The position numbers were made by a program, and so were the translations under genes. Of a stretch of DNA of 64,000 nucleotides, positions 857 to 57,861 are shown one piece after another. The notes under the pieces are model-generated. The model saw only the letters and a list, made by a program, of their open reading frames with translations, ran no database searches and was not told the DNA's origin. How positions within the stretch are numbered: position 1 is the first letter of the stretch; each line of letters opens with the position of its first letter. This DNA comes from Eledone cirrhosa (lineage: Eukaryota), in NCBI GenBank assembly GCA_964016885.1, contig CAXHJY010001043.1, forward strand, positions 1 through 64,000. The letters run 5' to 3'.

Positions 857-1729
857 TCATCATCATCATCATCATCATCAACGTTTAACGTCCGTGTTCC
901 ACGCTTGCATGGGTTTGGACGGGGGTAGTCCCACTTGAGGCAAGAGTGATTGTCTTGCTCGCATAGGACTGTCTGGCAGGTTTTCTACAGTTGGATGCCC
1001 TTCCTAACACCAACCACATTTACAGTGTGGGTCTGGGAGGTTTTTACCGTGTTGCCTACACGGCCACATTACAGCGTGGACTGTGTGTTTTTTGTCGTGA
1101 CACCTACACGATCTCATTTGTTTCGGCCTCGATGGCGCGGCACCAACATAACTTTACATAGAACGGGGTGGTGTGGATCGGGTGGGGGTGGTGGGACGGG
1201 GTGTATTTGTTAGAGATGCCTACTGGCTGGAGTAGGTTTTACTATATATTTAGGTAAGGCGGGTCTTCTCTGTTACTGAGTACCGCCAAAGGTCTCGGTC
1301 CAGTGACATTGTCTTGGAGAGGTGTAAGTGTGTGATGTCGGAGTTTATCAGCTCGTCCCAGGTTTTTCTAGGTCTGCCTATTCCGTGACTACCGTCTATC
1401 TTTATTGCCCTGCACTTTGTTATACAGCTATCGACTTTCATGCGCATCACGTGTCCATACCAACGTAGCCTTCTCTCGAGTAAACAACATCTGATCCCTC
1501 TTATCTCTAATTTATTCCTTAGTTCGTTTATGCTTTGCCGTTCACGTATATTACTGTTACACATCCAGCGGAGCATGCAAGCTTCGTTCCTCTCTAGTCT
1601 GCGTATATCCTCTGCACACAATGCCCAGGTCTCACTGCCATGCAGCATTGCTGTTCGTATGCAGGCATCGTACAACCTGCCTTTCATTTTTAGTGAGAAC
1701 CCTTTAGCAGCTAATAGTGGTATAAGCTC
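857..1729 (-). mobile_element. RTE-clade LINE, 5'-truncated copy (RT C-terminus, 3'UTR, (GAT)n tail)
   Basis: ORF 1250..1687 nearly identical to the C-terminus of ORFs 4161..4883 and 50267..51988; (CAT)n tail at the left end; flanked by (TA)n. Confidence 0.93.
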
Positions 1730-1742
1730 ATATATATATATT

Positions 1743-2260: not shown

Positions 2261-5250
2261 TAATTATTGCTGGCGACCTAAATGGTCACATTGGACAACA
2301 TTGTGACGGCTATGACGGAATCCATGGAGGCTATGGGTTTGGTACTAGAAATGAGGAAGGCTCCAGAATCCTGGAATTGTGACGCAAATAATCTAACTAT
2401 CTGTAACACTAACTTCAAAAAACGAGACAATCACTTGATCACCTACAAATCAGGGGAACACACCAGCCAGGTAGATTATATCCTTACCAGAAGACGTGAC
2501 AGAGTGTCGGTTGTAAACACTAGATACCTCCCCCATGAAGAATGCAGCTCCCAACATAGACTGATAATTAGCGACCTCATAGTCAGGACGAGACGTACTC
2601 GACAGCAGAAGAAGACTATTCTTAGGAGAAAAATATGGAAGCTAAAGGACCCCACAGCCAGAAATAAATTTAAATGCATATTACTTGATGCTTTCGACAG
2701 TAAGGAAGAGCATTTAGAGTCGTACAATATAGAGGAACAGTGGGAATTCCTGAAAGCAAACCTGCTGATGGCGACAGACGAAATCTGTGGCTGGAGCAGG
2801 CCTATAGGCAGGAGGAGAATAACATGGTGGTGGAACAGTAAGGTGGAGGACTCAATTAATGCCAAAAAGCAGGCTTGGAAAGTATGGCGGGATGGGGGAA
2901 GTAGAGAAGACTATCAAGTGGCCAGGAGGGAAGCTAGGAGACAAGTGTACTTCGCAAGAAGGGAAGCAGAGGAAAGAAAGTTCAAGCATGTTCTACAACG
3001 CGAGGACCAAAAACGTGAGGTGTTCAGGATTGCTAGGCAATGTGTCAAGGAAAACCGTGATATTGTCGGGGAGAAGTGTGTACTTAATGAAGATGGCGTA
3101 CTTGCCATCACTGACGCTGATAAGAAGGTAGCTTGGAAGTGTCACTACGAAAGGCTACTAAATGAGGAGAATAAATGGGGGAAAGACAGTCTCCCCCACA
3201 TCGACCCAATAGAGGGACCAGCAGTGTTAGTCGAAGGTAGTATAATAAGTAAGGCAATCAAAGATATGAAGACGGGTAAGGCGGCTGGGCCTTCGGAAAT
3301 AGTTGCTGAAATGCTGAAAGCTTCTGGAATGGTGAGACACACCATGGTCACCCGGATAGTAAACCAAGTCATACAGAATGGGGTTGTTCCAAAGGACTGG
3401 CGTAGCAGCAACATCATTAACTGCTACAAGGGTAAAGGAGACGCCCTAGATAGGAGTAACTATAGAGGCATTAAATTAATCGACCAGGTCATGAAGGTCA
3501 CAGAAAAAGTAATAGCGCAATTAATCAGAGAGAGAATTGATCTAGATGAAATGCAGTTCGGGTTTGTGACAGGTAAAAGTACCATAGATGCTCTTTTCAT
3601 TGTACGACAACTACAGGAGAAGTACCTAGCTTAATGTAAACCCCTATACTTAGCTTTTGTCGACTTGGAAAAGCCTTCGACAGAGTCCCCCCGTTCCATT
3701 ATCTGGTGGGCTCTTAGAAAACTAGGTGTTGATGAATGGCTTGTGAGAGCTATACAAGCCATGTATAAAGAAACAGTCAGCAAGGTTAGAATTAACAACG
3801 AATATAGTGAAGAGTTTAGCGTAAAAGTTGTTGTTCATCAGGGCTCCGTTCTTAGCCCCCTACTATTTATTATTGCCCTTCAGGCTATAACAGTGGAGTT
3901 CAAGACCGGCTGCCCATGGGAACTCCTATACGCAGATGATCTAACGCTCATAGCTGAATCAATGGCCGAACTAGAGAAGAAATTCCAAACATGAAAGCAT
4001 GGCCTAGAATCAAAAGGCCTTAAAATTAACCTGTCTAAGACTAAAGTTCTAGTTTGGAGGAAGGAAAATAGGGCGCCGGTCCCATCTGGGAAATGGCCAT
4101 GCTCAGTGTAGGAAAGGAGTAGGTAGAAACTCCATTTTATGTCCTAAATGCAAAGTATGGGTGCATAAAAGATGTAGTGGGATCACAGGTAAGCTAACTA
4201 AGAACATAGATTTTATATGTGGCCGGTGCTCTGGTGCAATAAGTAGCAGCAAGTGCCCACAGAATACGAGCTCATTGCATTGCACAGATGGTTCTATAGA
4301 AATAGTGGACAGCTTCCGTTACCTGGGTGACAAAATCAGCAGTGGGGGAGGGTGCTCTGAAAGTACAGTAGCTAGAGTCATAACGGGATGGAAAAAGTTC
4401 AGAGAACTTATACCACTATTGGCCGCTAAAGGGTTCTCTCTAAAAATGAAACGCGGGTTGTATGATGCCTGCATACGAACAGCAATGTTGCATGGCAGTG
4501 AGACCTGGGCATTGTGTGCGGAGGATATATGCAGACTGGAGAGGAACGAAGCTTGCATTCTCCACTGGATGTGTAATAGTAATATACGTGAACGGCAAAG
4601 CATAAACGAAGTAAGGGAAAAATTAGAAATAAGAGGGATCAGATGTTGTTTACTCGAGAGAAGACTACGTTGGTATGGTCACGTGATGCGCATGAAAGAC
4701 GACAGCTGTATAAAAATGTGCAGGGCAATAAAAATAGACGGTAGCCACGGAGTAGGCAGACCCAGAAAAACCTGGGACGACTTGATAAATTCCGACCTCA
4801 CACACTTACACCTCTCCAAGACAATGTCACTGGACCGAGACCTTTGGCGCTACACAGTAATAGAGAAGACCCGCCTTACCTAAGTACAAAGTGAAACCTA
4901 CTACAGTCAGTAGGCACCTCTAACAAAATACACCCCCGTCCCACTACCCCCACCCCATCCACACCACCCCTTTCAATGTAAAGTTATGTTGGTACCACAA
5001 CATCCAGCCCGAAACAAATGAGGTTGCGTAGGTTTCACGACAAAAAACACACAGTCCTGTAATGTGGCCGTGTAGGTAACACGGTAAAAACCTCCCAGTT
5101 CCACACTGTAAATGTGGTTGGCGTTAGGAAGGGCATCCAGCCATAGAAAACCCGCCAGACAGTCCTATGCGAGCAAGACAACCACTCTTGCCTCAAGCCG
5201 TCCAAACCCATGCAAGCGTGGAATATGGACGTTAAACGATGATGATGATG
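2261..5250 (+). mobile_element. RTE-clade LINE, 5'-truncated, disrupted (end of APE endonuclease, RT, PHD-like finger, 3'UTR, (GAT)n)
   Basis: GDLNGH, SQVDYIL, NYRGIKL, QFGF, LYADD and FRYLG motifs; stops at 3632 and 3992 and frameshifts near 2377, 3690 and 4107 relative to the 49-52 kb copy. Confidence 0.95.
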
Positions 5251-6238: not shown

Positions 6239-6575
6239 TCATCGTTTCATTTTACGTCCGCTTTTTCCCTGCTTGCAAGGGTGGGACAGGAACTGATGCT
6301 GGCTTGATTTCTACAGCTGGATGCCCTTTCTAACACCAACCTCATTTACAGCGAGTGCTGGGTGCTTTTTTGCCGTGGCACCTCCACGACCACTTTGCAG
6401 TGGAATGATATAGACCCCAGTCCCTATCATCTCATTTCTACAGCTGAGTAAACTGGAGCAATGTGAAATAAAGTGTCTTGCTCAAGGAAACAACACATCA
6501 CCCGGTCTGAGAATTGAACTCACAACCTTTCGATTGCAAGGCCAATGCTCTAACCACTAAGCCATGTGCCTCCAT
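6239..6575 (-). mobile_element. tRNA-derived SINE with RTE-type 3' end
   Basis: Minus strand has TGGCTTAGTGG (A box) and GAGTTCAATTC (B box), ggtgttagaaagggcatccagctgtagaaa and a GAT tail; homologous to 54506..54937. Confidence 0.85.
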
Positions 6576-7456
<881 letters not shown>

Positions 7457-7547
7457 TGTAGGAGGTGAGTTTTATTGTAGTACAATAAAGCAATGCAGAT
7501 ATCTGATAAGAAGCACTCTACAATTTGTAGGACTGGAGTATACATAA

Positions 7548-7871
7548 TATATAAGAACAAAAGATGGTTAAAAGAGTTCCATGTATTTTATTATGCGCAT
7601 TTGAAAAACAAATATCATCATGCAATAATATTTGTGTTTTCATCAGATAAAACAGGAAGACATGATATGAAGGTTAAAAAATAGTGCATGTTTTAAATCA
7701 ACATATGTTGATTTAAAACTGCACTATCCACAAGTGTTTTTTTAACCTTCATATCATGTCTTCCTGTTTTATCTGATGAAAACACAAATATTATTGCATG
7801 ATGATATTTGTTTTTCAAATGCGCATAATAAAATACATGGAACTCTTTTAACCATCTTTTGTTCTTATATA
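7548..7871. mobile_element. Fold-back element: ~133-bp perfect inverted arms around a palindromic centre, each arm with a hammerhead-like motif (putative non-autonomous Penelope-type element)
   Basis: 7548-7681 is the reverse complement of 7738-7871; central gttttaaatcaacat|atgttgatttaaaac palindrome. Confidence 0.8.
7767..7833 (+). ncRNA. Type I minimal hammerhead ribozyme-like motif with a G12>C core change (mirror copy at 7586..7652, minus strand)
   Basis: ttttat-CTGATGA-16-bp stem II-CAAA-TGCGCAT-A-ataaaa; stem I ttttat/ataaaa; palindromic stem III. Confidence 0.7.
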
Positions 7872-8029
7872 AATATATATATATATAAATAAATATATAT
7901 ATATATATAAATAAATATATATATATATATAAATATATATATATATATGAATAAATATATATAAATAAATAAGTTGAAAAAAATGAAAACGAAATTTCAT
8001 TTCTCACTCTTAGTATGGCACTTACTTAA

Positions 8030-8087
8030 ATGTAAGTATGTATGTATACGTAGATACATATATGTATACAGACGTACAGTAGCATGC

Positions 8088-8120
<33 letters not shown>

Positions 8121-8393
8121 TACACATATGCATACAGGTACACATACATATATGCACACATCAGTTTAGCCGACGTTTATTATAACGCAGCTTTGTTCAC
8201 TTGTTTGTCAACAAACTGAACAGCCTGAATTTATGCCATACGGTGTTAAGGCAACCACGTCACCTTTTTGTTCAACACTGACACAGGAACGATGTACTAG
8301 TTTCAAGGTTGTTAGCTATCATCAGCACCGTTTACCCATGCTACTGTACCTCTGTATACATATATGTATGTACGTATACATACATACTTACAT
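8030..8393. mobile_element. Short element with ~57-bp inverted repeats enclosing a hammerhead motif
   Basis: 8030-8086 vs 8337-8393 reverse complementary (2 mismatches); embedded in (TA)n. Confidence 0.7.
8288..8332 (-). ncRNA. Type I minimal hammerhead ribozyme motif
   Basis: aacggtg-CTGATGA-tagctaacaacctt-GAAA-CTAG-TA-catcgtt: 7-bp stem I, intact core, palindromic ACTAGT stem III, GUA cleavage triplet; stem II weak. Confidence 0.75.
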
Positions 8394-25553: not shown

Positions 25554-25795
25554 AACCAAGGTCCATTGAGCTTTTTTTTTGAGAAAAATTATCATCATAC
25601 ATATTAAATATGTATTGATACCTTAACTATGTATATATATATATATATTTAAAGTTTTCACTCCGACATAACTGTATACATATAAGTATATGAATTTTGT
25701 ATATTTAATAATATATGCTATGTTTACAAATATACATTTGGAAAGCTTTTTAGCTAGCGCCAACTATCGGGTTCTAGCAGAAGCAGTGGGGTGCA

Positions 25796-25836
25796 ACTGC
25801 CAACGCATTTCTGGTTCAGGCTGTCATCAGGACAGT
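25796..25836 (-). ncRNA. Type I minimal hammerhead ribozyme motif (decayed)
   Basis: actgtc-CTGATGA-cagcctgaacca-GAAA-TGCG-TT-ggcagt: 6-bp stem I, intact core, near-palindromic ATGCGT; stem II degraded. Confidence 0.62.
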
Positions 25837-25895
25837 GCTTCCCCCATCCTGCTCTCTCTATATATATTTCTACATATATACACGTGTGTGTGTGC

Positions 25896-25928
<33 letters not shown>

Positions 25929-26230
25929 AATCTATATGCGCACATAAACACATCCATAATCACATATGAATATATATTATATATAGTTGTGAGATTGAGG
26001 ACTCAGCACCATAGTAAAGATTAAGTCTTGAGTCCTGTTACTCTGGATTTTAACCTGTGTACTCAGAAGGCCTTTGTTAATGACCCTATGAGTACACAAA
26101 AGAAACTCTAGGGTAACAAGACTCAAACTTGGCCTTATAAATATATATATACATGCACATCCACAAACACACACACATATATATATTAGACACTTTACAA
26201 TAAGTACAAGTCTACAAGACATAATTCATA

Positions 26231-27677: not shown

Positions 27678-28678
27678 CTATTTACCAGGGGTTGTAACAT
27701 TCATGGTTCTGTAGGAAGTGTTTTCTTTAAGTGTTATAACAGAACTTGTTGATTCTGTGCTGCTCTGACTAGTATTATACAAATACTCATGGCGGCAAAG
27801 AGGTGACGCATCACTTGTTTTTGATTCTGTCAAATTGGAAAAGGAATCTGAGGGAGAAATACACGTGTCAAAGGAATCTGAGGGAGAAATACACGTGTCA
27901 AAGGAATCTTGTGGAGAATACAATGGGCTTATGTCTTCAAAACTGTCAGGAGAATAAGCTGAGGATTTATGATCTGCTCTATCGAGCGATACAGTTGCTG
28001 GTGCTATTCTCTCATTACACAAACTAGTAAAAAGCAATGAACTTTCAACACTGTGTTGTTTTGATCGGAAAGCTTTTCTTCGTGATGCTACCCTGCTCTG
28101 TGGACTTTGTGTTTGGTTATTAGACTTGGCAGCATTGTTCTCTTTTGAAGAGTAATCTGGGGCTTGTGAGGCATCTTTGTTGGCAGTAAAACGGTTCATA
28201 TGCGTGTTACAAAAAAACTCACCCAGATTGGATAAAATGTCTAAAGAGAAATCAATGTTACGCTGTTGAGATGTACTTCCATGTATGGATTCTTGATGGA
28301 AACGTTCTGCAGCTTGACGAAGAAGCACTGGAGACCCAGGCAGTGACTGACACTTGCGTCTTGCTAATGGACGTTTGTTGCGAGGATAACAGTCAGGAGT
28401 TATTGGTGTGCAAGGTGGTGTGAACGGTGAAGATGGTGATGGCAAGTCAAATGACAGATTCATGTCTCTATGAACTCCTAAGACTTTCTTACCATCGCAG
28501 AATTTGTTTAACAAGGTGAATGGGTTTGAACGAGCTGGGATGTAAAATGGATCAGCTTCACTCATAGTTAGACCAATGACTTTAGCAGTCATTGTAGGAT
28601 CATCATCCATCGATGACCAGTTGCAGGAATCTAAAATATTGTCTTCTGACCGGGACCTCTTGCAAGATGTTTTAGAAC
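27678..28678 (-). CDS. TESK: TESK-like kinase terminal exon, Ser/Pro-rich C-terminal tail
   Basis: tttcag acceptor at 28679-80, phase-compatible with ORF 27678..28610; contains NPF and RRKCQSLPGSP (cf. TESK RRCRSLPSSP 14-3-3 site); TAG stop. Confidence 0.9.
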
Positions 28679-28877
28679 CTGAAATATAGATTTTATAAAA
28701 TAAACCAAATGCTTAATCTAAAAAAAAATTATTTCTTGCATTTGTTACATCTACTCCTCACATCTATATCTTGCATCCTCACATCTATATATCGCATCAT
28801 CACATCTATTTTTTATATCACCCACATGTCTTCACATCTATATATTGCATTCTCACAACTATTTTTTACATCACCCA

Positions 28878-34802: not shown

Positions 34803-35178
34803 GGGTACAATGTGGTGCTGGAAATCGAACTCATAACCTCACGACTAAGCACATATCTTCAAAAAATTAATAATAATTAGTCACAGATGGTATTGAATTA
34901 AACCATCATTATGACATATCTGCTTTAATATATTTAATTCAGTAATATAGGAATAGTTATTTACAATTTTGTGATAAGCCATTGCTTATCACAGAAGGAA
35001 CCATAGAGTATCTGCCACATTAAATGTCACAAAACCAAACAAGTTACGTGTCAATGCCACAGGGACAGATCACAGCTAAATAAGACGATCCTCAAATTAC
35101 TAAATCATCTAAAAAAAACTCTCCCATTGAAGAAACAAAACAGTAATAAAATAAAAAAAGAGATAAAATATTACATAC

Positions 35179-35264
35179 AAAGGATCAGGAATTTTGGCAG
35201 CCAAGCCAAAATCAGCAACTATAGCAGTGTAGACATCATCATCAGAAATCTTGATGAGAATATT
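35179..35264 (-). CDS. TESK: TESK-like kinase exon (NILIKISDDDVYTAIVADFGLAAKIPDP)
   Basis: 86 nt, ttctag/gtatgt boundaries, contains DFG; ends in phase 2 matching next exon. Confidence 0.95.
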
Positions 35265-35386: not shown

Positions 35387-38300
35387 ATCATCATCATCAT
35401 CAACGTTTGATGTTTATCTTCCATGCTTGGATGGGTTACACTGGTTGTCTCATGGTGAAGTAAGTCAAGTCTATATTCCCCACTAGCATGGGTTAGACAG
35501 GTTGTCATGTGAGGTAAGTCAGGTCTATATTACATGCTAGCATGGGTTAGACAGGTTGTCATGTGAGGTAAGTCAGGTCTATATTCCATGCTAGCATGGG
35601 TTAGACAAGTTGTCATGTGAGGTCAATCAGGTCTATATTACATGTTAGCATCGGTTAGACAGGTTGTCATGTGAGGTAAATCAGGTCTATATTACATGCT
35701 AGCATGGATTAGACAGGTTGTCATGTGAGGCAAGTCAGGTCTATATGACATGCTAGCATGGGTTAGACAGGTTGTCATGTGAGTTAAATCAGGTCTATAT
35801 TACATGCTAGCATGGGTTAGACAGGTTGTCATGTGAGGTAAGTCAGGTCTATATTCCATGCTAGCATGGGTTAGACAAGTTGTCATGTGAGGTAAGTCAG
35901 GTCTATATTCCATGCTAGCATGGGTTAGACAAGTTGTCATGTGAGGCAAGTCAGGTCTATATTCCATGCTAGCATGGGTTAGACAAGTTGTCATGTGAGG
36001 CAAGTCAGGTCTATATTACATGCTAGCATGGATTAGACAAGTTGTCATGTGAGGCAAGTCAGGTCTATATTACATGCTAGCATGGGTTAGACAGGTTGTC
36101 ATGTGAGGTAAGTCAGGTCTATATTCCATGCTAGCATGGATTAGACAGGTTGTCATGTGAGGCAAGTCAGGTCTATATTACATGCTAGCATGGGTTAGAC
36201 AGGTTGTCATGTGAGGTAAGTCAGGTCTATATTCCATGCTAGCATGGGTTAGACAAGTTGTCATGTGAGGCAAGTCAGGTCAATATTACATGCTAGCATG
36301 GGTTAGACAGGTTGTCATGTGAGGCAAGTCAGGTCTATATTACATGCTAGCATGGATTAGACAGGTTGTCATGTGAGGTAAGTCAGGTCTATATTACATG
36401 CTAGCATGGGTTAGACAAGTTGTCATGTAAGGCAAGTCAGGTCTATATTACATGCTAGCATGGGTTAGACAAGTTGTCATGTGAGGTAAGTCAGGTCTAT
36501 ATTCCGTGCTAGCATGGATTAGACAGGTTGTCATGTGAGGCAAGTCAGGTCTATATTACATGCTAGCATGGGTTAGACAAGTTGTCATGTGAGGCAAGTC
36601 AGGTCTATATTACATGCTAGCATGGGTTAGACAAGTTGTCATGTGAGGCAAGTCAGGTCTATATTACATGCTAGCATGGATTAGACAGGTTGTCATGTGA
36701 GGCAAGTCAGGTCTATATTCCATGCTAGCATGGGTTAGACAAGTTGTCATGTGAGGCAAGTCAGGTCTATATTACATGCTAGCATGGGTTAGACAGGTTG
36801 TCATGTGAGGTAAGTCAGGTCTATATTACATGCTGGCATGGGTTAGACAGGTTGTCATGTGAGGTAAGTCATGTCTATATTACATGCTAGCATGGGTTAG
36901 ACAAGTTGTCATGTGAGGCAAGTCAGGTCTATATTACATGCTAGCATGGGTTAGACAGGTTGTCATGTGAGGCAAGTCAGGTCTATATTACATGCTAGCA
37001 TGGATTAGACAGGTTGTCATGTGAGGTAAGTCAGGTCTATATTCCATGCTAGCATGGATTAGACAGGTTGTCATGTGAGGTAAGTCAGGTCTATATTACA
37101 TGCTAGCATGGATTAGACAGGTTGTCATGTGAGGTAAGTCAGGTCTATATTCCATGCTAGCATGGATTAGACAGGTTGTCATGTGAGGTAAGTCAGGTCT
37201 ATATTCCATGCTAGCATGGATTAGACAGGTTGTCATGTGAGGTAAGTCAGGTCTATATTCCATGCTAGCATGGATTAGACAGGTTGTCATGTGAGGTAAG
37301 TCAGGTCTATATTACATGCTAGCATGGATTAGACAGGTTGTCATGTGAGGTAAGTCAGGTCTATATTCCATGCTAGCATGGATTAGACAGGTTGTCATGT
37401 GAGGTAAGTCAGGTCTATATTCCATGCTAGCATGGATTAGACAGGTTGTCATGTGAGGTAAGTCAGGTCTATATTACATGCTAGCATGGGTTAGACAAGT
37501 TGTCATGTGAGGCAAGTCAGGTCTATATTACATGCTAGCATGGATTAGACAGGTTGTCATGTGAGGCAAGTCAGGTCTATATTCCATGCTAGCATGGGTT
37601 AGACAAGTTGTCATGTGAGGCAAGTCAGGTCTATATTCCACGCTAGCATGGATTAGACAGGTTGTCATGTGAGGCAAGTCAGGTCTATATTCCATGCTAG
37701 CATGGGTTAGACAAGTTGTCATGTGAGGCAAGTCAGGTCTATATTACATGCTAGCATGGGTTAGACAGGTTGTCATGTGAGGTAAGTCAGGTCTATATTA
37801 CATGCTGGCATGGGTTAGACAGGTTGTCATGTGAGGTAAGTCATGTCTATATTACATGCTAGCATGGGTTAGACGGGTTGTCATGTGAGGTAAATCAGGT
37901 CTATATTACATGCTAGCATGGGTTAGACAGGTTGTCATGTGAGGCAAGTCAGGTCTATATTACATGCTAGCATGGGTTAGAGAGGTTGTCATGTGAGGTA
38001 AGTCAGGTCTATATTACATGCTAGCATGGGTTAGACAGGTTGTCATGTGAGGCAAGTCAGGTCTATATTCCATGCTAGCATGGGTTAGACAGGTTGTCAT
38101 GTGAGGCAAGTCAGGTCTATATTCCATGCTAGCATGGGTTAGACAGGTTGTCATGTGAGGCAAGTCAGGTCTATATTACATGCTAGCATGGGTTAGACAG
38201 GTTGTCATGTGAGGTAAGTCAGGTCTATATTCCATGCTAGCATGGATTAGACAGGTTGTCATGTGAGGCAAGTCAGGTCTATATTACATGCTAGCATGGG

Positions 38301-41300
38301 TTAGACAGGTTGTCATGTGATGTAAGTCAGGTCTATATTCCATGCTAGCATGGGTTAGACAAGTTGTCATGTGAGGCAAGTCAGGTCTATATTACATGCT
38401 AGCATGGGTTAGACAGGTTGTCATGTGAGGCAAGTCAGGTCTATATTACATGCTAGCATGGGTTAGACAAGTTGTCATGTGAGGCAAGTCAGGTCTATAT
38501 TACATGCTAGCATGGGTTAGACAAGTTGTCATGTGAAGCAAGTCAGGTCTATATTACATGCTAGCATGGATTAGACAAGTTGTCATGTGAGGCAAGTCAG
38601 GTCTATATTCCATGCTAGCATGGGTTAGACAAGTTGTCATGTGAGGCAAGTCAGGTCTATATTACATGCTAGCATGGGTTAGACAGGTTGTCATGTGAGG
38701 TAAGTCAGGTCTATATTACATGCTAGCATGGGTTAGAGAGGTTGTCATGTGAGGTAAGTCAGGTCTATATTACATGCTAGCATGGGTTAGACAGGTTGTC
38801 ATGTGAGGCAAGTCAGGTCTATATTCCATGCTAGCATGGGTTAGACAGGTTGTCATGTGAGGCAAGTCAGGTCTATATTCCATGCTAGCATGGGTTAGAC
38901 AGGTTGTCATGTGAGGCAAGTCAGGTCTATATTACATGCTAGAATGGGTTAGACAGGTTGTCATGTGAGGTAAGTCAGGTCTATATTACGTGCTAGCATG
39001 GGTTAGACAGGTTTTCATGTGAGGTAAGTCAGGTCTATATTACGTGCTAGCATGGATTGGACAGGTTGTCATGTGAAGTAAGTCAGGTCTATATTACGTG
39101 CTAGCATGGGTCAGACAGGTTGTCATGTGAGGTAAATCAGGCCTATATTACATGCTAGCATGGATTAGACAGGTTGTCATGTGAGGCAAGTCAGGTCTAT
39201 ATTACGTGCTAGCATGGGTTAGACAGGTTGTCATGTGGGGCAAGTCAGGTCTATATTCCATGCTAGCATGGATTAGACAGGTTGTCATGTGAGGCAAGTC
39301 AGGTCTATATTACATGCTAGCATGGGTTAGGCAGGTTGTCATGTGAGGCAAGTCAGGTCTATATTCCATGCTAGCATGGATTAGACAGGTTGTCATGTGA
39401 GGTAAGTTAGGTCTATATTACATGCTAGCATGGGTTAGACAGGTTGTCATGTGAGATAAGTCAGGTCTATATTACATGCTAGCATGGGTTAGACAAGTTG
39501 TCATGTGAGGTAAGTCAGGTCTATATTACATGCTAGCATGGGTTAGGCAGGTTGTCATGTGAGGCAAGTCAGGTCTATATTACGTGCTAGCATGGGTCAG
39601 ACAGGTTGTCATGTGAGGTAAATCAGGTCTATATTACATGCTAGCATGGATTAGACAGGTTGTCATGGGAGGCAAGTCAGGTCTATATTACGTGTTAGCA
39701 TGGGTTAGACAGGTTTTGATGTGAGGTAAGTCAGGTCTATATTACATGCTAGCATGGGTTAGACAGGTTGTCATGTGAGGTAAGTCAGGTCTATATTACA
39801 TGCTAGCATGGATTAGACAGGTTGTCATGTGAGGTAAATCAGGTCTATATTACGTGCTAGCATGGGTTAGACAGGTTGTCATGTGAGGCAAGTCAGGTCT
39901 ATATTACATGCCAGCATGGATTAGACAGGTTGTCATGTGAGGTAAGTCAGGTCTATATTATGTGCTAGCATGGGTCAGACAGGTTGTCATGTGAGGTAAA
40001 TCAGGTCTATATTACATGCTAGCATGGAATAGACAGGTTGTCATGGGAGGCAAGTGAGGTCTATATTACGTGCTAGCAAGGGTTAGACAGGTTGTCATGT
40101 GAGGCAAGTCAGGTCTATATTCCATGCTAGCATGGATTAGACAGGTTCTCATGTGAGGTAAGTCAGGTCTATATTCCATGCTAGCATGGGTTAGACAGGT
40201 TGTCATGTGAGGTAAGTCAGGTCTATATTACATGCTAGCATGGATTAGACAGGTTGTCATGTGAGGCAAGTCAGGTCTATATTACGTGGTAGCATGGGTT
40301 AGACAGGTTGTCATGTGAGGCAAGTCAGGTCTATATTCCATGCTAGCATGGATTAGACAGGTTGTCATGTGAGGTAAGTCAGGTTTATATTCCATGCTAG
40401 CATGGGTTAGACAGGTTGTCATGTGAGGTAAGTCAGGTCTATATTACATGCTAGCATGGATTAGACAGGTTGTCATGTGAGGTAAGTCAGGTCTATATTA
40501 CATGCTAGCATGGATTAGACAGGTTGTCATGTGAGGTAAGTCAGGTCTATATTACATGCTAGCATGGATTAGACAGGTTGTCATGTGAGGTAAGTCAGGT
40601 CTATATTACATGCTAGCATGGATTAGACAGGTTGTCATGTGAGGCAAGTCAGGTCTATATTACATGCTAGCATGGGTTAGACAGGTTGTCATGTGAGGCA
40701 AGTCAGGTCTATATTACATGCTAGCATGGATTAGACAGGTTGTCATGTGAGGCAAGTCAGGTCTATATTACATGCTAGCATGGGTTAGACAGGTTGTCAT
40801 GTGAGGCAAGTCAGGTCTATATTCCATGCTAGCATGGGTTAGACAGGTTGTCATGTGAGGCAAGTCAGGTCTATATTCCATGCTAGCATGGATTAGACAG
40901 GTAGTCATGTGAGGTAAGTCAGGTTTATATTCCATGCTAGCATGGGTTAGACAGGTTTTCATGTGAGGTAAGTCAGGTCTATATTACATGCTAGCATGGA
41001 TTAGACAGGTTGTCATGTGAGGCAAGTCAGGTCTATATTACATGCTAGCATGGATTAGACAGGTTGTCATGTGAGGCAAGTCAGGTCTATATTACATGCT
41101 AGCATGGGTTAGACAGGTTGTCATGTGAAGCAAGTCAGGTCTATATTACATGCTAGCATGGATTAGACAGGTTGTCATGTGAGGCAAGTCAGGTCTATAT
41201 TCCATGCTAGCATGGGTTAGACAGGTTGTCATGTGAGGCAAGTCAGGTCTATATTCCATGCTAGCATGGGTTAGACAGGTTGTCATGTGAGGCAAGTCAG

Positions 41301-44300
41301 GTCTATATTACATGCTAGCATGGGTTAGACAGGTTGTCATGTGAGGTAAGTCAGGTCTATATTACATGCTAGCATCGATTAGACAGGTTGTCATTTGAGG
41401 TAAATCAGGTCTATATTACGTGCTAGCACGGGTTAGACAGGTTGTCATGTGAGGCAAGTCAGGTCTATATTACATGCCAGCATGGATTAGACAGGTTGTC
41501 ATGTGAGGTAAGTCAGGTCTATATTACGTGCTAGCATGAGTCAGACAGGTTGTCATGTGAGGTAAATCAGGTCTATATTACATGCTAGCATGGATTAGAC
41601 AGGTTGTCATGTGAGGCAAGTCAGGTCTATATTCCATGCTAGCATGGATTAGACAGGTTGTCATGTGAGGCAAGTCAGGTCTATATTACATGCTAGCATG
41701 GGTTAGGCAGGTTGTCATGTGAGGCAAGTCAGGTCTATATTCCATGCTAGCATGGGTTAGACAGGTTGTCATGTGAGGTAAGTCAGGTCTATATTACATG
41801 CTAGCATGGGTTAGACAGGTTGTCATGTGAGGTAAGTCAGGTCTATATTACATGCTAGCATGGATTAGACAGGTTGTCATGTGAGGCAAGTCAGGTCTAT
41901 ATTACATGCTAGCATGGATTAGACAGGTTGTCATGTGAGGCAAGTCAGGTCTATATTACATGCTAGCATGGGTTAGACAGGTTGTCATGTGAGGCAAGTC
42001 AGGTCTATATTACATGCTAGCATGGATTAGACAGGTTGTCATGTGAGGCAAGTCAGGTTTATATTACATGCTAACATGGATTAGACAGGTTGTCATGTGA
42101 GATAAGTCAGGTATATATTACATGCTAGCATGGGTTAGACAAGTTGTCATGTGAGGCAAGTCAGGTCTATATTACATGCTAGCATGGATTAGACAGGTTG
42201 TCATGTGAGGCAAGTCAGGTCTATATTCCATGCTAGCATGGATTAGACAGGTTGTCATGTGAGATAAGTCAGGTCTATATTACATGCTAGCATGGGTTAG
42301 ACAGGTTTTCATGTGAGATAAGTCAGGTCTATATTACATGCTAGCATGGGTTAGACAAGTTGTCATGTGAGGCAAGTCAGGTCTACATGCTAGCATGGAT
42401 TAGACAGGTTGTCATGTGAGGCAAGTCAGGTCTATATTACATGCTAGCATGGATTAGACAAGTTGTCATGTGAGGTAAGTCAGGTCTATATTCCATGCTA
42501 GCATGGATTAGAGAGGTTGTCATGTGAGGTAAGTCAGGTATATATTACATGCTAGCATGGATTAGACAGGTTGTCATGTGAGGTAAGTCAGGTCTATATT
42601 ACATGCTAGCATGGGTTAGACAGGTTGTCATGTGACGTAAGTCAGGTCTATATTACATGCTAGCATGGGTTAGACAGGTTGTCATGTGAGGCAAGTCAGG
42701 TCTATATTCCATGCTAGCATGGGTTAGACAGGTTGTCATGTGAGGCAAGTCAGGTCTATATTCCATGCTAGCATGGGTTAGACAGGTTGTCATGTGAGGC
42801 AAGTCAGGTCTATATTACATGCTAGCATGGGTTAGACAGGTTGTCATGTGAGGTAAGTCAGGTCTATATTACGTGCAAGCATGGGTCAGACAGGTTGTCA
42901 TGTGAGGTAAATCAGGTCTATATTACATGCTAGCATGGATTAGACAGGTTGTCATGTGAGGCAAGTCAGGTCTATATTACGTGCTAGCATGGGTTAGACA
43001 GGTTGTCATGTGAGGCAAGTGAGGTCTATATTCCATGCTAGCATGGATTAGACAGGTTGTCATGTGAGGTAAGGCAGGTCTATATTCCATGCTAGCATGG
43101 GTTAGACAGGTTGTCATGTGAGGTAAGTCAGGTCTATATTACATGCTAGCATGGATTAGACAGGTTGTCATGTGAGGCAAGTCAGGTCTATATTATGTGC
43201 TAGCATGGATTAGACAGGTTGTCATGTGAGGCAAGTCAGGTCTATAATACGTGCTAGCATGGATTAGACAGGTTGTCATGTGAGGCAAGTCAGGTCTATA
43301 TTACATGCTAGCATGGGTTAGACAGGTTTTCATGTGAGGTAAGTCAGGTCTATATTACGTGCTAGCATGGATTAGACAGGTTGTCATGTGAGGTAAGTCT
43401 GGTCTATATTACGTGCTAGCATGGGTCAGACATGTTGTCATGTGAGGTAAATCAGGTCTATATTACATGCTAGCATGGATTAGACAGGTTGTCATGTGAG
43501 GCAAGTCAGGTCTATATTACGTGCTAGCATGGGTTAGACAGGTTGTCATGTGAGGCAAGTCAGATCTATATTCCATGCTAGCATGGATTAGACAGGTTGT
43601 CATGTGAGGCAAGTCAGGTCTATATTACATGCTAGCATGGGTTAGACAGGTTGTCATGTGAGGCAAGTCAGGTCTATATTCCATGCTAGCATGGATTAGG
43701 CAGGTTGTCATGTGAGGTAAGTCAGGTCTATATTCAAAGCTAGCATGGGTTAGACAGGTTGTCATGTGAGGTAAGTCAGGTCGATATTACATGCTAGCAT
43801 GGATTAGACAGGTTGTCATGTGAGGCAAGTCAGGTCTATATTACATGCTAGCATGGATTAGACAGGTTGTCATGTGAGGCAAGTCAGGTCTATATTACAT
43901 GCTAGCATGGGTTAGACAGGTTGTCATGTGAAGCAAGTCAGGTCTATATTACATGCTAGCATGGATTAGACAGGTTGTCATGTGAGGCAAGTCAGGTCTA
44001 TATTCCATGCTAGCATGGGTTAGAGAAGTTGTCATGTGAGGCAAGTCAGGTCTACATTACATGCTAGCATGGATTAGACAGGTTGTCATGTGAGATAAGT
44101 CAAGTCTATATTACATGCTAGAATGGGTTAGACAAGTTGTCATGTGAGGAAAGTCAGGTCTATATTACATGCTAGCATGGATTAGACAGGTTGTCATGTG
44201 AGGTAAATCAGGTCTATATTACATGCTAGCATGGATTAGACAGGTTGTCATGTGAGGTAAGTCAGGTCTATATTACATGCTAGCATGAATTAGACAGGTT

Positions 44301-47300
44301 GTCATGTGAGGCAAGTCAGGTCTATATTACATGCTAGCATGGGTTAGACAAGTTGTCATGTGAGGCAAGTCAGGTCTATATTACATGCTAGCATGAATTA
44401 GACAGGTTGTCATGTGAGGCAAGTCAGGTCTATATTACATGCTAGCATGGATTAGACAGGTTGTCATGTGAGATAAGTCAGGTCTATATTACATGCTAGC
44501 ATGGATTAGACAAGTTGTCATGTGAGGCAAGTCAGGTCTATATTACATGCTAGCATGGGTTAGACAAGTTGTCATGTGAGGCAAGTCAGGTCTATATTAC
44601 ATGCTAGCATGGATTAGACAGGTTGTCACGTGAGGCAAGTCAGGTCTATATTACATGCTAGCATGGATTAGACAAGTTGTCATGTGAGGTAAGTCAGGTC
44701 TATATTCCATGCTAGCATGGGTTAGACAGGTTGTCATGTGAGGTAAGTCAGGTCTATATTCCATGCTAGCATGGGTTAGACAGGTTGTCATGTGAGGTAA
44801 GTCAGGTCTATATTACATGCTAGCATGGGTTAGACAGGTTGTCATGTGAGGTAAGTCAGGTCTATATTACATGCTAGCATGGATTAGACAGGTCGTCATG
44901 TGAGGCAAGTCAGGTCTATATTACATGCTAGCATGGATTAGACAGGTTGTCATGTGAGGTAAGTCAGGTCTATATTACATGCTAGCATGGATTAGACAGG
45001 TTGTCATGTGAGGCAAGTCAGGTCTATATTACGTGCTAGCATGGGTTAGACAGGTTGTCATGTGAGGTAAATCAGGTCTATATTACATGCTAGCATGGGT
45101 TAGACAGGTTATCATGTGAGGTAAATCAGGTCTATATTACATGCTAGCATGGGTTAGACAGGTTGTCATGTGAGGCAAGTCAGGTCTATATTACATGCTA
45201 GCATGGATTAGACAGGTTGTCATGTGAGGCAAGTCAGGTCTATATTACATGCTAGCATGGATTAGACAGGTTGTCATGTGAGGCAAGTCAGGTCTATATT
45301 ACATGCTAGCATGGGTTAGACAGGTTGTCATGTGAGGCAAGTCAGGTCTATATTACATGCTAGCATGGATTAGACAGGTTGTCATGTGAGGCAAGTCAGG
45401 TCTATATTACATGCTAGCATGGATTAGACAGGTTGTCATGTGAGGCAAGTCAGGTCTATATTACATGCTAGCATGGGTTAGAAAGGTTGTCATGTGAGGC
45501 AAGTCAGGTCTATATTACATGCTAGCATGGATTAGACAGGTTGTCATGTGAGGTAAGTCAGGTCTATATTACATGCTAGCATGGATTAGACAGGTTGTCA
45601 TGTGAGGTAAGTCAGGTCTATATTACATGCTAGCATGGGTTAGACAGGTTGTCATGTGAGGCAAGTCAGGTCTATATTACATGCTAGCATGGGTTAGACA
45701 AGTTGTCATGTGAGGTAAGTCAGGTCTATATTACATGCTAGCATGGGTTAGACAGGTTGTCATGTGAGATAAGTCAGGTCTATATTACATGCTAGCATGG
45801 ATTAGACAGGTTGTCATGTGAGGTAAATCAGGTCTATATTACATGCTAGCATGGATTAGACAGGTTGTCATGTGAGGTAAGTCAGGTCTATATTACATGC
45901 TAGCATGGATTAGACAGGTTGTCATGTGAGGTAAGTCAGGTCTATATTCCATGCTAGCATGGATTAGACAGGTTGTCATGTGAGGTAAGTCAGGTCTATA
46001 TTACATGCTAGCATGGATTAGACAGGTTGTCATGTGAGGTAAGTCAGGTCTATATTACATGCTAGCATGGATTAGACAGGTTGTCATGTGAGGTAAGTCA
46101 GGTCTATATTCCATGCTAGCATGGATTAGACAGGTTGTCATGTGAGGTAAGTCAGGTCTATATTCCATGCTAGCATGGATTAGACAGGTTGTCATGTGAG
46201 GTAAGTCAGGTCTATATTACATGCTAGCATGGATTAGACAGGTTGTCATGTGAGGTAAGTCAGGTCTATATTACATGCTAGCATGGATTAGACAGGTTGT
46301 CATGTGAGGTAAGTCAGGTCTATATTACATGCTAGCATGGATTAGACAGGTTGTCATGTGAGGTAAGTCAGGTCTATATTACATGCTAGCATGGATTAGA
46401 CAGGTTGTCATGTGAGGTAAATCAGGTCTATATTACATGCTAGCATGGATTAGACAGGTTGTCATGTGAGGTAAGTCAGGTCTATATTACATGCTAGCAT
46501 GGATTAGACAGATTGTCATGTGAGGTAAATCAGGTCTATATTACATGCTAGCATGGATTAGACAGGTTGTCATGTGAGGTAAGTCAGGTCTATATTACAT
46601 GCTAGCATGGATTAGACAGGTTGTCATGTGAGGTAAGTCAGGTCTATATTCCATGCTAGCATGGATTAGACAGGTTGTCATGTGAGGTAAGTCAGGTCTA
46701 TATTACATGCTAGCATGGATTAGACAAGTTGTCATGTGAGGTAAGTCAGGTCTATATTCCATGCTAGCATGGATTAGACAGGTTGTCATGTGAGGTAAGT
46801 CAGGTCTATATTCCATGCTAGCATGGATTAGACAGGTTGTCATGTGAGGTAAGTCAGGTCTATATTACATGCTAGCATGGATTAGACAGGTTGTCATGTG
46901 AGGTAAGTCAGGTCTATATTACATGCTAGCATGGATTAGACAGGTTGTCATGTGAGGTAAGTCAGGTCTATATTCCATGCTTGCATGGATTAGACAGGTT
47001 GTCATGTGAGGTAAGTCAGGTCTATATTACATGCTAGCACGGATTAGACAGGTTCTCATGTGAGGCAAGTCAGGTCTATATTATGTGCTAGCATGGATTA
47101 GACAGGTTGTCATGTGAGGCAAGTCAGGTCTATATTACATGCTAGCATGGATTAGACAGGTTCTCATGTGAGGCAAGTCAGGTCTATATTACATGCTAGC
47201 ATGGATTAGACAGGTTGTCATGTGAGGTAAGTCAGGTCTATATTACATGCTTGCATGGATTAGACAGGTTGTCATGTGAGGTAAGTCAGGTCTATATTAC

Positions 47301-47520
47301 ATGCTAGCATGGATTAGACAGGTTCTCATGTGAGGCAAGTCAGGTCTATATTACATGCTAGCATGGATTAGACAGGTTGTCATGTGAGGCAAGTCAGGTC
47401 AGGTGACCACGTCTTGCTCATACATATCTGAATATTGGCTTGATTCCTACAGCTGGATGCTCTTCCTAATGCCAACCACATTAGTGTAGACTGGGTGCTT
47501 TTTTATCGTGGCACCAAAAC
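35387..47520 (-). mobile_element. Single RTE-partner SINE copy split by the satellite (tail at 35387-35475, body at 47400-47520)
   Basis: Left flank (cat)n-caacgttt...ccatgc; right flank gtcttgctcat...ggcttgattcctacagctggatgctcttcctaatgccaacc, collinear with the reverse complement of 54770-54937. Confidence 0.85.
35475..47400. repeat. 54-bp-unit tandem satellite, ~220 copies, SINE-derived
   Basis: Unit catgctagcatgg(g/a)ttagaca(g/a)gttgtcatgtgagg(t/c)aagtcaggtctatatt(a/c); 18-aa periodicity in the ORF track. Confidence 0.99.
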
Positions 47521-52009: not shown

Positions 52010-52161
52010 AGAAGATCCCGTTAAGGGTGAAAGCAGCGATTCTTTGCTTAAACTTTAATCTGTTATTTTAATAAATATTTGCTCTACGGTTCTTATATAT
52101 TTGATATATATTTATCCTTATCGAGCCCTCTTTGGATTTTAGTCTTCAAATTTATTATTAT

Positions 52162-52166
<5 letters not shown>
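52010..52166 (+). mobile_element. Short TA-embedded repeat (same family as 10572 and 57561)
   Basis: Shares both sub-blocks with 57547-57848. Confidence 0.8.
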
Positions 52167-52214
<48 letters not shown>

Positions 52215-52216
<2 letters not shown>

Positions 52217-54431
52217 GACTCCCACTCTTACCTCGACTTCACCTCTTCCCACCCCACCCACACTAAACTCTCCATTCCCTACTCCCAACTTCTCAGGATC
52301 CGCCGCCTCTGTAGCCGAGATGCTGACTTCGAGTCCCAGGCCCTTTCCCTAGTCAGCTATTTCATCCGCAGAGGTTACCTCCCCTCTCTCGTCCACACCG
52401 CTCTCACCCGCGCCCGTGCTATCCCCCGCTCCACCACCCTCACCCCACGCCACCGCACACCCACCCACCGTCTCCCCTTCCCCCGCACCATCCGCCGCCT
52501 CTTCCGACACCTCCAGTCCGACCCCTCCACCTCCCACATCTTCCCAACCCCACCACTCCCCTCCTTCAAACGCGCACGCAATCTCCGCACCCTCCTCGTC
52601 CACAGCTCCCTACCCCCCCCCCCGGTTCCTTCCCCTGTTCTAGGCCCGGCTGGAACACCTGTCCCCACATCACCAACACCACCACCTTCCAGGGTCCCAA
52701 CGGCCACCCTCTCTCGGTCCGGCATGCCTTCCGCTGCACCTCCTCCAACCTAGTCTACGGACTTCGTTGCACGAGGTGCAGCGCGACTTATGTCGGACAG
52801 ACGGGACGCCGCCTGGCGGACCGAGTCACGGAGCACCTCCGGGACATTCGTCTCGGGGGCAGTTCCCCCATCGCCCGCCACTTTGGTGGCCCTGGACACT
52901 CCGCACGCCATCTCACAGTCTGTGGCCTACTCCAGTGCCACGGAACACCCGCCCATCGCCTTACGGTCGAACAACGTACTATCTTCATCCTTCAGACCCA
53001 CACTCCCCCCGGCCTGAACTCCCCACCCTTATTCCTTTAGCGTTCGACCGCCCCCTCCCCCACACTTATCCCCCACTAACACACCCCTCCTTTTCACCGC
53101 CCACCCCACACTAACAATACTAACACCTCCACTCCACCCCTCATCTGACCACCCTTCCCCAACTAACATACTAACATCCCTTCCCTCCCCTCTTCTCCTC
53201 CTCCCCCCTCCTTATCACACGCACCCACTTACACCACCCACCCCACACGCAACTAACATCACTAACAACCTCCAACCCCACGCACACGTACCCACACACC
53301 CTCGTACACCACCAACTCTACACACCCTACCCCCACTCACACCTGCATTCCACCCCTCCCCACCTCCCGTATACTAACACCCACTAACACCTCTCCACCA
53401 AACTACACACACACCAGTACACCACACTCCCTCCATAGAACCACACACACTCTTCTCTCCCCACTCCACACTCACTCATCCCACTAACACCCCTACTAAT
53501 ACACACACACACACCCTCCTCACTCCAACTCTCACACCTACCCATCCTCGCCTCCCTACCATTCCGCCGACTGCTGCTATGCCCTTCCGACCACTGTCTC
53601 AGCACCAACTGACCACAGCACTTCCACTGCTGACCACTTCCTGTTGCGTGCGCACCCCACATCTCTCCTCTTCCGACCACCGCTTCTTGGATTACCCACA
53701 CGCGTTTTGACTTCTAACCAAAATCTCCATACATCCGTGTAACTTACCACTTTCAACCATCCTCTTACACCATCACCTATATAACTCACCCACACACACA
53801 CCCCAAAACAATTTTTTTTATCCACACGCCACCCACACCCACAACACGCTTAAACCACACACACGTGCTTCCACCACATATTTACACCCTCAGCCCCCTG
53901 ATTCCTCTCCCCCCACCCCCCTATCCACACACGCACAGACCCTCCAACCCACATAAACCCCCCCCACACACACCTTCCTGAACATGCAACCCCGTTCTTC
54001 CCCCAACCCTCACTTTCACATACACACACACACACGCACACCACCTTCAGCCCTCCCCGCTCGGACACCCCGTCTCCCTCTCCCCACTCCACCCGCCACC
54101 ACCTCTACTCACCACACACCCTTCCACCACCTGTTTACCCCCCTTTTAATTTCAGTTTATTTTGATCATGCCTTTATTTTTAAATTTTCTCATTCCTTGT
54201 ATTTTGATCATGCTTTATTTTTATTTATTATTTATTATATTTTTGTCTTTATTTGTTAATTTTTCATTCGCACTGTTTCCTTTCGCTATATGTCTCTCCA
54301 CCACTCCCCTACACACCTTTTGAACTCTCACCTGAAGAAGGGCTTATGCCCGAAACGTCGTCCCCCACCTACCCCCCACTCTCCTGAGCGTGAATTTAAT
54401 AAACATTTATCGTACTGCCTCTCTGTTCTGT
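52215..54431 (+). mobile_element. Penelope-like retroelement, 5'-truncated (RT C-terminus, Cys linker, GIY-YIG endonuclease, C-rich 3' region, terminal repeat with hammerhead)
   Basis: TDSHSYLDFTSSHP...IPYSQLLRIRRLCS; after a poly-C frameshift (~52620) FRCTSSNLVYGLRCTRCSATYVGQTGRRLADRVTEH...PGLN, stop at 53040; (TA)n on both sides. Confidence 0.92.
54328..54362 (+). ncRNA. Minimal hammerhead ribozyme core in the Penelope-like terminal region
   Basis: CTGAAGA-a-GGGC ttat GCCC-GAAA-CGTC; stem I only ~2 bp. Confidence 0.72.
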
Positions 54432-54447
54432 CCCTGTTCAATTTTTC

Positions 54448-54505
<58 letters not shown>

Positions 54506-54509
<4 letters not shown>

Positions 54510-54937
54510 TTAGTGGTTTGAGCATTGGGCTTGCAATCGAAAAGGTTGTGAGTTCAATTCTCAGACCGGGTGATGTGTTGTTTCCTTGCGCAAGACACTT
54601 TATTTCACATTGCTCCAGTTTACCCGGCTGTAGAAATGAGATGAGAGGACTGGGGTCCCTATCATTCCACTGCAAAGTGGTCGTGGAGGTGCCGCGGCAA
54701 AAAAGCACCCAGCCCACACTGTAAAGTGGACATGTAGGCGCCACGGAAGAACAAGCACCAGCACTCACTGTAAATGAGGTTGGTGTTAGGAAGGGCATCC
54801 AGCTGTAGAAATCAAGCCAGAATCAGTTACCACATGAGCAAGACAAGGTCAGCTGACTGGACACTGCTCACAACAGGACAACCCGTCTAACCCATGCTAG
54901 CGTGGAAGAACGGACGTATGATGATGATGATGATGAT
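54506..54937 (+). mobile_element. Near full-length tRNA-derived SINE with RTE-type 3' end
   Basis: A and B boxes at 54506-54562; 3' ccatgctagcgtggaagaacggacgtatgatgatg. Confidence 0.88.
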
Positions 54938-55037
54938 AATATATATATATTTGTTTGAACAAATTAATCTGTTAAAATAATAAATATTTGCTCTGCAGCT
55001 TTGTAAATTATTGCATATAAATACACACACATGTATG

Positions 55038-57404: not shown

Positions 57405-57560
57405 CTATAAGAAGAAACAAATGGAAATTTAAATCATTAAATGAGAAAGATCTCTCATAGATTTTCCTAGTTTTCAAAAAAATCTACTACTCCTCACATC
57501 TGTCACTTTCATCCTTCCTATCCACATGACCCAACCATCTCCCCCATAGTAATAATAATA

Positions 57561-57848
57561 AATTTGAAAACTAAAATCCAAAGAGGGCTCGATAAGGATA
57601 AATATATATCAAATATATAAGAACCCTCAGAAGATCCCGTTAAGGGTGAAAGCAGCGATTCTTTGCTTAAACTTTAATCTGTTATTTTAATAAATTAATA
57701 TATATATATATATATTTATTAAAATAACAGATTAAAGTTTAAGCAAAGAATCGCTGCTTTCACCCTTAATGGGATCTTCTGAGGGTTCTTATATATTTGA
57801 TATATATTTATCCTTATCGAGCCCTCTTTGGATTTTAGTCTTCAAATT
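57561..57848. repeat. ~135-bp inverted repeat with a (TA)n spacer
   Basis: 57561-57695 vs 57713-57848 reverse complementary, ~2 mismatches. Confidence 0.92.
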
Positions 57849-57861
57849 AATATATATATAT

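Follow-up and report, generated by a model that had tools for sequence, protein, structure and literature searches.

Short sequences with the core of a type I hammerhead ribozyme lie near (TA)n tracts at several places in the 64,000-nucleotide stretch of octopus-like DNA from a TA-rich animal genome analysed here (the window), and the question is what kind of element carried them there. The original prediction held that they belong to diverse non-autonomous, ribozyme-processed retroelements mobilised by Penelope-like elements (PLEs) such as the one at 52.2-54.4 kb. The names E1 (7457-7870), E2 (about 7965-8393), E3 (about 25770-25860) and E4 (the motif 54329-54362) are used throughout.

Hammerhead motifs of the window

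The elements, their hammerheads and the coding PLE are laid out as follows.

7457..7704, minus strand: longer copy of E1; from its 5' start near 7704 it runs through the hammerhead to a main 3' end near 7549, and a tail extends it to 7457, where (AT)n follows
7457..7548, minus strand: optional 3' tail of E1, about 92 nt, with AATAAA 116 nt past the cut site; missing in the mirror arm
7584..7654, minus strand: hammerhead in the mirror arm of E1, with the core at 7646-7640, CAAA at 7603-7600 and a cut predicted after 7592
7690..7719, no strand assigned: palindrome of 30 bp without mismatch, centred on 7704/7705, where the two copies meet head to head; apparently the family starts here, at a fixed 5' position
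7705..7870, plus strand: inverted copy of E1 without the tail, ending in a TA-rich tract
7765..7835, plus strand: E1 hammerhead; helix I of 8 bp, CTGATGA 7773-7779, long helix II, CAAA 7816-7819 (GAAA in the family), palindromic helix III ATGCGCAT, predicted cut after 7827
7965..8337, minus strand: direct copy of E2, its 5' side cut off at 8337; hammerhead, internal simple repeat, main 3' end near 8030-8040
8288..8332, minus strand: E2 hammerhead; helix I of 6-7 bp, CTGATGA 8325-8319, GAAA 8304-8301, helix III ACTAGT, predicted cut after 8295
8338..8393, plus strand: inverted 3' piece of E2 (copy of 8087-8034; 57 matches, 3 mismatches), attached at the 5' break
25772..25860, minus strand: relic of a hammerhead in E3, with the core words intact, helix I long and bulged, helix II unpaired (0 bp) and helix III ATGCGT
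52214..54450, plus strand: PLE, 5'-truncated and frameshifted, flanked on either side by (TA)n; RT thumb, Cys linker, GIY-YIG endonuclease, long 3' region
54329..54362, plus strand: E4, minimal hammerhead in the terminal repeat of the PLE; CTGAAGA, bulged A, 4-bp helix II, GAAA, ACGT, cut after 54359

A check of the sequence found CUGANGA, a self-complementary helix III and NUH in four unrelated sequences at the places where four minimal type I hammerheads had been proposed. The complete core (CUGANGA, GAAA and NUH) is present in E2, E3, E4 and the E1 family but not in the window's own copy of E1, whose pair of motifs at 7773 and 7646 reads CAAA. Helices I and II pair in E1 and E4, but helix II has no base pairs in the window copy at 25830 (0 bp) and only 2 bp in that at 8325. 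E4 is a minimal hammerhead; in E2 and E3, helix I is of a long form with bulges, nearer to the canonical type.

To compare these motifs with chance expectation, we used two descriptors, both devised only after the motifs had been seen. The strict one (helix I of at least 2 bp, CTGANGA, GAAA, palindromic helix III and NUH) matched three times in the window, at 8325(-) in E2, 25830(-) in E3 and 54332(+) in E4, whereas 200 block-wise dinucleotide shuffles gave 0.225 matches on average and never more than 2; none of the 18 other CTGANGA words of the window passed it. The relaxed one (one change in GAAA, helix I of at least 4 bp) also matched three times, at 7773(+), its mirror 7646(-) and 8325(-), versus a shuffle mean of 0.055 and a maximum of 2. 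The motifs are real and occur above the shuffle expectation. No Rfam hammerhead model reached its gathering threshold, the best being HH9 at 8273-8343(-) with 13.1 bits versus a threshold of 52 (E 1.1).

A (TA)5+ tract lies 77-189 nt away from all five motif copies, whereas 26% of ordinary positions and 3/18 of the other CTGANGA words are within 200 nt of such a tract. When E1, E2, E3 and E4 were aligned with one another (14 pairs), no pair did better than shuffles, the best being equalled by 19/300, which bears out the statement that they share only the core; E2 and E3 seemed at first slightly alike, which is not significant (26/300 shuffles align as well). The helix I duplex was strong in E3 (1/1000 shuffles as good), moderate in E2 (24/1000) and indistinguishable from shuffles in E1 and E4 (77-123/1000 as good). 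The predicted self-duplex energies of the helices III were -10.5, -4.8, -3.9 and -1.7 kcal/mol.

The two arms of E1 agree at 155 positions with 0 mismatches and 12 gap columns, differing by an 11-nt deletion and a 1-nt insertion, and the G12C core change (CAAA), which is rare in the family, is present in both (7816-7819 and 7603-7600). Helix II spans 15 bp. Counted from the cut site, the element ends at 42 and 135 nt on the 3' side and at about 123 nt on the 5' side. For this copy, the predicted energy of the hammerhead fold is -6.0 versus -13.6 kcal/mol for a competing fold in the monomer, and -31.9 versus -40.9 kcal/mol in the dimer. In E2, AATAAA stands 114 nt past the cut site and the tail reaches about 7969; its helix II has 2 bp in the window copy and would have 4 bp, with a U.U at the base, if 8308 carried the family letter. 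E3, with ATTAAA 93 nt past its cut site and TA tracts on its flanks, is probably an older relic. A frame scan of the window elements found no long ORF in E1-E3. The ATG within CTGATGA of E1 and E2 was considered as the start of a PLE frame and rejected, the frames closing within 16-41 codons.

Other repeats and genes share the window. A fold-back insert at 57546-57851 has arms with 138 matches and 5 mismatches, (TA)n at its centre and, at about 57620-57665, a stretch that resembles a hammerhead but departs from it in the core (CAGAAGA ... GAAA); its halves recur in inverted order between TA tracts at 52010-52167, with 98-100% identity, and the two inserts look like a young family, to which 31 bases at 54964-54994, 90% like 52055-52085 and beside TA, are possibly related. 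Directly after the fold-back follows a MITE-like insert (57861-58090) with TIRs of about 73 bp and an 80-bp spacer, and a degenerate fold-back at 26023-26130 (73% between arms) has TA tracts on both sides. Two satellites were found, one of 54 bp at 35415-47400 (222 copies, 95% matches) and one of 50 bp at 60873-61771 (18 copies, 93% matches). LINE copies at 49053-51988(+), 2282-4883(-) and 1250-1741(-), presumably RTE-like, carry an endonuclease, an RT (Pfam RVT_1, E 1.3e-28) and a PHD-like Cys domain, and end in short ATG/GAT repeats and TA. A tRNA-like head at 6507-6564(-), just below the Rfam tRNA threshold with 28.1 bits, and a similar start at 54507-54640(+), after the PLE, are probably tRNA-derived SINEs inserted in TA tracts. 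A short frame with the protein-kinase DFG motif (35109-35264(-)) and a Ser-rich frame of 344 residues without a Pfam match (27678-28712(-)) are probably exons of a host kinase gene, which we take to be TESK/LIMK-like.

E1 and E2 as repeat families

Four of 23 public sequencing runs, X1, X4 and X21 from organism A and X5 from organism B, were aligned to 7457-8393 at 80% likeness. The shares found for the runs of organisms C-M and for the metagenomes on the list may be due to TA words and carry no weight as evidence. The 937 bases were matched by 9,519 contigs of X1, 458 of X4 and 197 of X5, and by 122,480 of the 12,467,656 reads of X21. Summed depth in X1, which is no copy number, was 0.2-2 million over E1 and E2 versus 12-23 at 7679-7689, a stretch peculiar to this locus. 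Allowing for contig overlap, we read this depth as thousands of copies or more. E1 and E2 are thus supported as two separate, multi-copy, non-coding families in two organisms, with an intact family core, and the possibility that they are single-copy, raised as a ground for rejecting the prediction, does not apply to them.

The families carry the letters that the window copies lack. Position 7816 is G, giving GAAA, in 596,740 of 597,838 X1 depth, in all X4 and X5 depth and in 429/434 X21 reads; the mirror position 7603 has the GAAA letter in 690,856 of 692,603 X1 depth, and position 8308 has the letter that pairs in helix II in 1,030,652 of 1,035,192. The family letters thus mend core and helix II at just the sites that are broken in the window copy, and this, together with the shuffle control, speaks against the motifs being chance matches. 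The linked idea, that the E1 hairpin arose only in sequencing or assembly, as a fold-back artefact, has in its favour the 0 mismatches between the arms, as chance has the lack of an Rfam hammerhead at threshold, but the arms differ by the 11-nt deletion and the 1-nt insertion, and independent runs hold other fold-back joints as well as contigs across 7679-7689. We regard an explanation by chance or artefact as scarcely credible.

Among the 40 of 107 variant rows listed, the fixed core positions are absent from the family polymorphisms (about 0.13 by chance), and the free core position N7 of E2 (8321) is variable (8,262/18,039 reads). All five listed E1 variants at paired sites (7766, 7784, 7792, 7795 and 7806, in the proximal part of helix I and in helix II) keep the pairing, one-sidedly; variant 7762 would break the distal extension of helix I. 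As to the covariation that had been proposed as a test, the rows listed show one-sided changes that keep pairing and no two-sided compensatory change. The variant pattern is weakly consistent with selection on the hammerhead.

The ends of the families recur. Over the E1 tail, X1 depth is 0.72-0.83 million versus 1.72 million at 7553-7584, about half; 54 X1 contigs pass into TA at 7539, by the main 3' end near 7549, and 42 mark the main 3' end of E2 near 8030-8040. On the 5' side, all six E1 joints among the 15 of 205 listed end at 7703 or 7705. Joint letters were listed for 12 of 36 rows; of the nine X1 rows for E1, six link inverted pieces to 7697-7705, and three join at 7817-7828, inside the hammerhead, one of them at the first base after the cut site. 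The inverted pieces joined to 7697-7705 have seven different break points (7487-7657) among the joints listed, which suggests that the inverted piece varies from insertion to insertion. No shared upstream continuation at 7703 appears among the 24 of 629 loose ends listed, where one is listed for E2. These data suggest that the 5' start of E1 is fixed near 7703, about 70 nt before the core; because alignments must stop near 7704 by construction, this reading rests on the joints and on the lack of a listed continuation.

E2 possibly has a fixed start as well. The family runs on past 8336, where three loose-end consensi (8336/8339) agree for about 22 letters and then diverge, and their agreement of 0.74-0.82 over 30 letters possibly fits a family start there. 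The letters beyond 8336 are predicted to pair with bases that follow the cut site, in a bulged helix I of the canonical type. The E2 family also splits into variants 3' of the hammerhead (8189-8267); many contigs and reads part from the window copy at 8267 and at 8188 and continue in letters common to them, which makes the window copy the less frequent form in this part. One E2 joint, from 8307 to 8045, is head-to-tail (81 reads from one start).

The X21 loose ends at 7992/7993 and 8231/8232, and the molecule ends at 7522, 7601 and 8228, were considered as element ends and dropped. All three AATT words of 7457-8393 stand at 7522, 7993 and 8228, and variant 7598 creates a fourth; since the X21 ends sit on these words, they are likely restriction-library artefacts, and the RAD depth was also dropped as a measure of abundance. 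In public metagenomes the E2 motif had 0 matches, and 34 matches to the 18-base E1 motif were attributed to chance, the upstream core being present in 0/34. No copy of the family motifs was found in public viral contigs (0 and 0) or prokaryote genomes (0).

How E1 and E2 may be copied

The window contains a GIY-YIG PLE with TA flanks. In its part 52214-53040, the RT thumb and GIY-YIG are encoded in two frames, with a frameshift near 52600-52624 and a stop at 53040. Its protein is 43-44% identical to P0003 and matches the C-terminal third of six RVT_1 + GIY-YIG proteins of 816-924 aa at 39-44% identity, the match beginning at residue 527-637 of the full-length relatives. The Pfam GIY-YIG match (E 0.0088) falls short of the cut-off, and the Cys linker CX2-5CxxC precedes the endonuclease with one Cys read as Trp; available text of Craig 2021 (PMC8557442) gives such a linker for Neptune and Nematis PLEs. 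Judged by its sequence, the element is of the endonuclease-positive type, with a C-terminal GIY-YIG after the RT thumb. E4, with AATAAA at +39 and TA at +89, is the ordinary terminal hammerhead of this coding element, and the view of 54332 as a mini-element has to be given up. The copy starts at the RT thumb and has no RT core, so it cannot be the helper; E1-E3 show no sequence likeness to it beyond the core. Mobilisation by this particular PLE is accordingly unsupported.

A PLE of some kind is nevertheless suggested by the layout of E1 and E2. In both, the 5' junction bears an inverted 3' piece whose length varies, the 3' end takes one of two positions and TA sequence stands on the flanks. 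These features correspond to the adjacent inverted copy, the optional tail and the microsatellite target of PLE-type insertions, and from this agreement with the published layout we infer copying in trans by PLE proteins. We therefore consider it just on the probable side that E1 and E2 are two unrelated, very abundant, short non-coding families, likely non-autonomous, copied in trans by PLE proteins into (TA)n. The claim of non-autonomous retroelements is partly supported for these two, which are multi-copy, non-coding and PLE-like in anatomy and for which a fixed 5' start is suggested in E1 and less clearly in E2, but not for 54332, which belongs to a coding element.

The copying would proceed in four steps. 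An RNA would begin 5' of the hammerhead, with about 70 nt ahead of the core in E1 and about 30 nt in E2, and extend beyond AATAAA. [quoted passage not shown] At the RNA 5' end, the cDNA may fold back or a second cDNA may join, producing the head-to-head inverted piece. For cleavage, two hammerheads would have to pair through the palindromic helix III as a dimer, and individual insertions can probably do without the hammerhead. The tails of E1 and E2 (65-92 nt) are longer than the published 30-40.

That the elements are ribozyme-processed, as originally proposed, found no support, since no element end lies at the cut site and a copy with a dead core has been duplicated into both arms of E1. This duplication fits PMC11167929, according to which in vitro insertion is unaffected by hammerhead mutants; it is accounted for equally by an RT error, or by conversion of one arm by the other at a later time.

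A different source for the same layout would be autonomous PLEs that shed E1 and E2 as solo pseudo-LTRs (pLTRs), reverse transcription beginning internally near the 5' end or stopping early, so that the stubs do not propagate themselves. Internal RT initiation has been shown for an anole PLE (PMC11167929, in part), solo pLTRs and fixed pLTR starts with palindromes are on record in the text at hand of Arkhipova 2013 (PMC3846280), and in that of Cervera and De la Pena 2014 (PMC4209133) minimal hammerheads are single for the most part and are interpreted as truncated PLEs. E4 shows the same module in a truncated coding PLE, and rare full-length parents would escape the few run rows listed. Against shedding, no reading frame begins in or after the hammerheads of E1-E3, unlike in the pLTRs of those papers, E2 contains a simple-repeat stretch, and the family depth is very high with no continuation among the loose ends listed. 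We rate this origin, the main rival of copying in trans, as possible but on the unlikely side. Somewhat more doubtful still is the notion that E1 and E2 are self-sustaining, SINE-like partners of PLEs, monomeric rather than tandem, each with its own fixed transcription start, ranking with the most abundant repeats of this genome and common to a second organism, and with a catalytically intact hammerhead that is under selection and defines neither end. If true, it would point to a role of the hammerhead in trans, by dimer cleavage between copies, and the function of the PLE hammerhead would become testable on thousands of natural insertions.

E1 and E2 could also be monomers of non-LTR retrozymes, in which transcripts of tandem arrays are cut from hammerhead to hammerhead and closed into circles, which a PLE then reverse-transcribes. 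Their size (250-400 nt) and low GC agree with this, as do the long bulged helices I of E2 and E3, which resemble the canonical type I, and the U.U at the base of the E2 helix II, which has a precedent in an axolotl retrozyme (PMC7229834, part of the text); the one head-to-tail joint (8307 to 8045) and one contig that joins at 7828 point the same way. However, the window has no tandem array of E1 or E2 units, the ends of E1 recur at fixed distances from the cut instead of being permuted, and the core-dead copy is present in both E1 arms. Because the ends recur away from the cut site and arrays are lacking in the window, we consider such processing improbable, and less likely than copying in trans or pLTR shedding. 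Finally, the inverted arms and TA flanks, and the presence of a TIR-bearing insert at 57861-58090, would suit MITE-like derivatives of a DNA transposon that insert at TA through TIRs and carry the hammerhead as a captured passenger. This is largely refuted by the inverted piece, whose length varies among copies; one arm has a tail, and the arms are copies of the element body rather than short constant ends; we regard it as very improbable.

Two very abundant families with an intact core, recurring ends away from the cut site and core-dead copies form a natural data set on the role of the hammerhead, which is stated to be unclear in PLEs in the text available of PMC8557442. The families would also bear on repeat annotation, in which units of this kind may end up among the unclassified SINEs or MITEs.

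Relation to known systems

The general idea is already in print, as PLE minimal hammerheads, retrozymes and non-autonomous PLEs have been described (PMC7229834; bioRxiv 10.64898/2026.07.22.740005; PMC8557442, each in part); the gain here is a good test system rather than a new class. A search of the literature on cephalopod hammerheads or retrozymes and non-autonomous PLE modules found no description of the E1 and E2 families. An octopus repeat annotation (PMC13282606) counts 190 Penelope-like families, 6.83% of that octopus genome; the word hammerhead is absent from the portion of its text at hand, and the E1 and E2 motifs from that of its supplement. It may be that existing catalogues, such as the repeat library of that annotation, Repbase or Dfam, list the families and leave the ribozyme unmentioned.

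The minimal hammerheads of metazoan PLE pLTRs form several unrelated families per genome, mostly single, and some pairs stand 100-700 bp apart on opposite strands (PMC4209133, in part). The hammerheads of the window resemble them in the type I core, the palindromic helix III and the occurrence of several unrelated families in one genome, and E4 fits them fully, including the bulged base after A9. They differ from them in the long bulged helices I of E2 and E3, in the 15-bp helix II of E1, and in that E1 and E2 are known without an attached ORF.

As far as the available text of Craig 2021 (PMC8557442) goes, PLE insertions have an adjacent inverted 5'-truncated copy, an optional tail and a (TA)n bias; palindromes at head-to-head junctions and mobilisation in trans by the pLTR sequence alone are described in parts of PMC3846280. 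E1 and E2 are like these insertion units in the head-to-head inverted copy, the junction palindrome, the optional tail and the (TA)n or AT-rich targets, and unlike them in having no ORF between the repeats and in the length of their tails.

Animal non-LTR retrozymes are non-coding hammerhead units for which movement by PLEs has been proposed (Cervera and de la Pena 2020, PMC7229834, partial text), and such movement has also been argued by Li, Clavereau and Pollet (2026, bioRxiv 10.64898/2026.07.22.740005, partial text). With these, E1 and E2 share the non-coding units of a few hundred bases, the type I hammerhead and the proposed derivation from PLE pLTRs, dispersed monomers being common there. 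Unlike retrozymes, which are defined by tandem repeats and circular RNA, E1 and E2 appear only as monomers with inverted pieces and with ends off the cut site. The putatively non-autonomous Chlamys PLEs such as MRC1 (PMC8557442, in the text at hand) offer a further parallel, as they too are short non-coding elements moved by PLE proteins into microsatellite targets.
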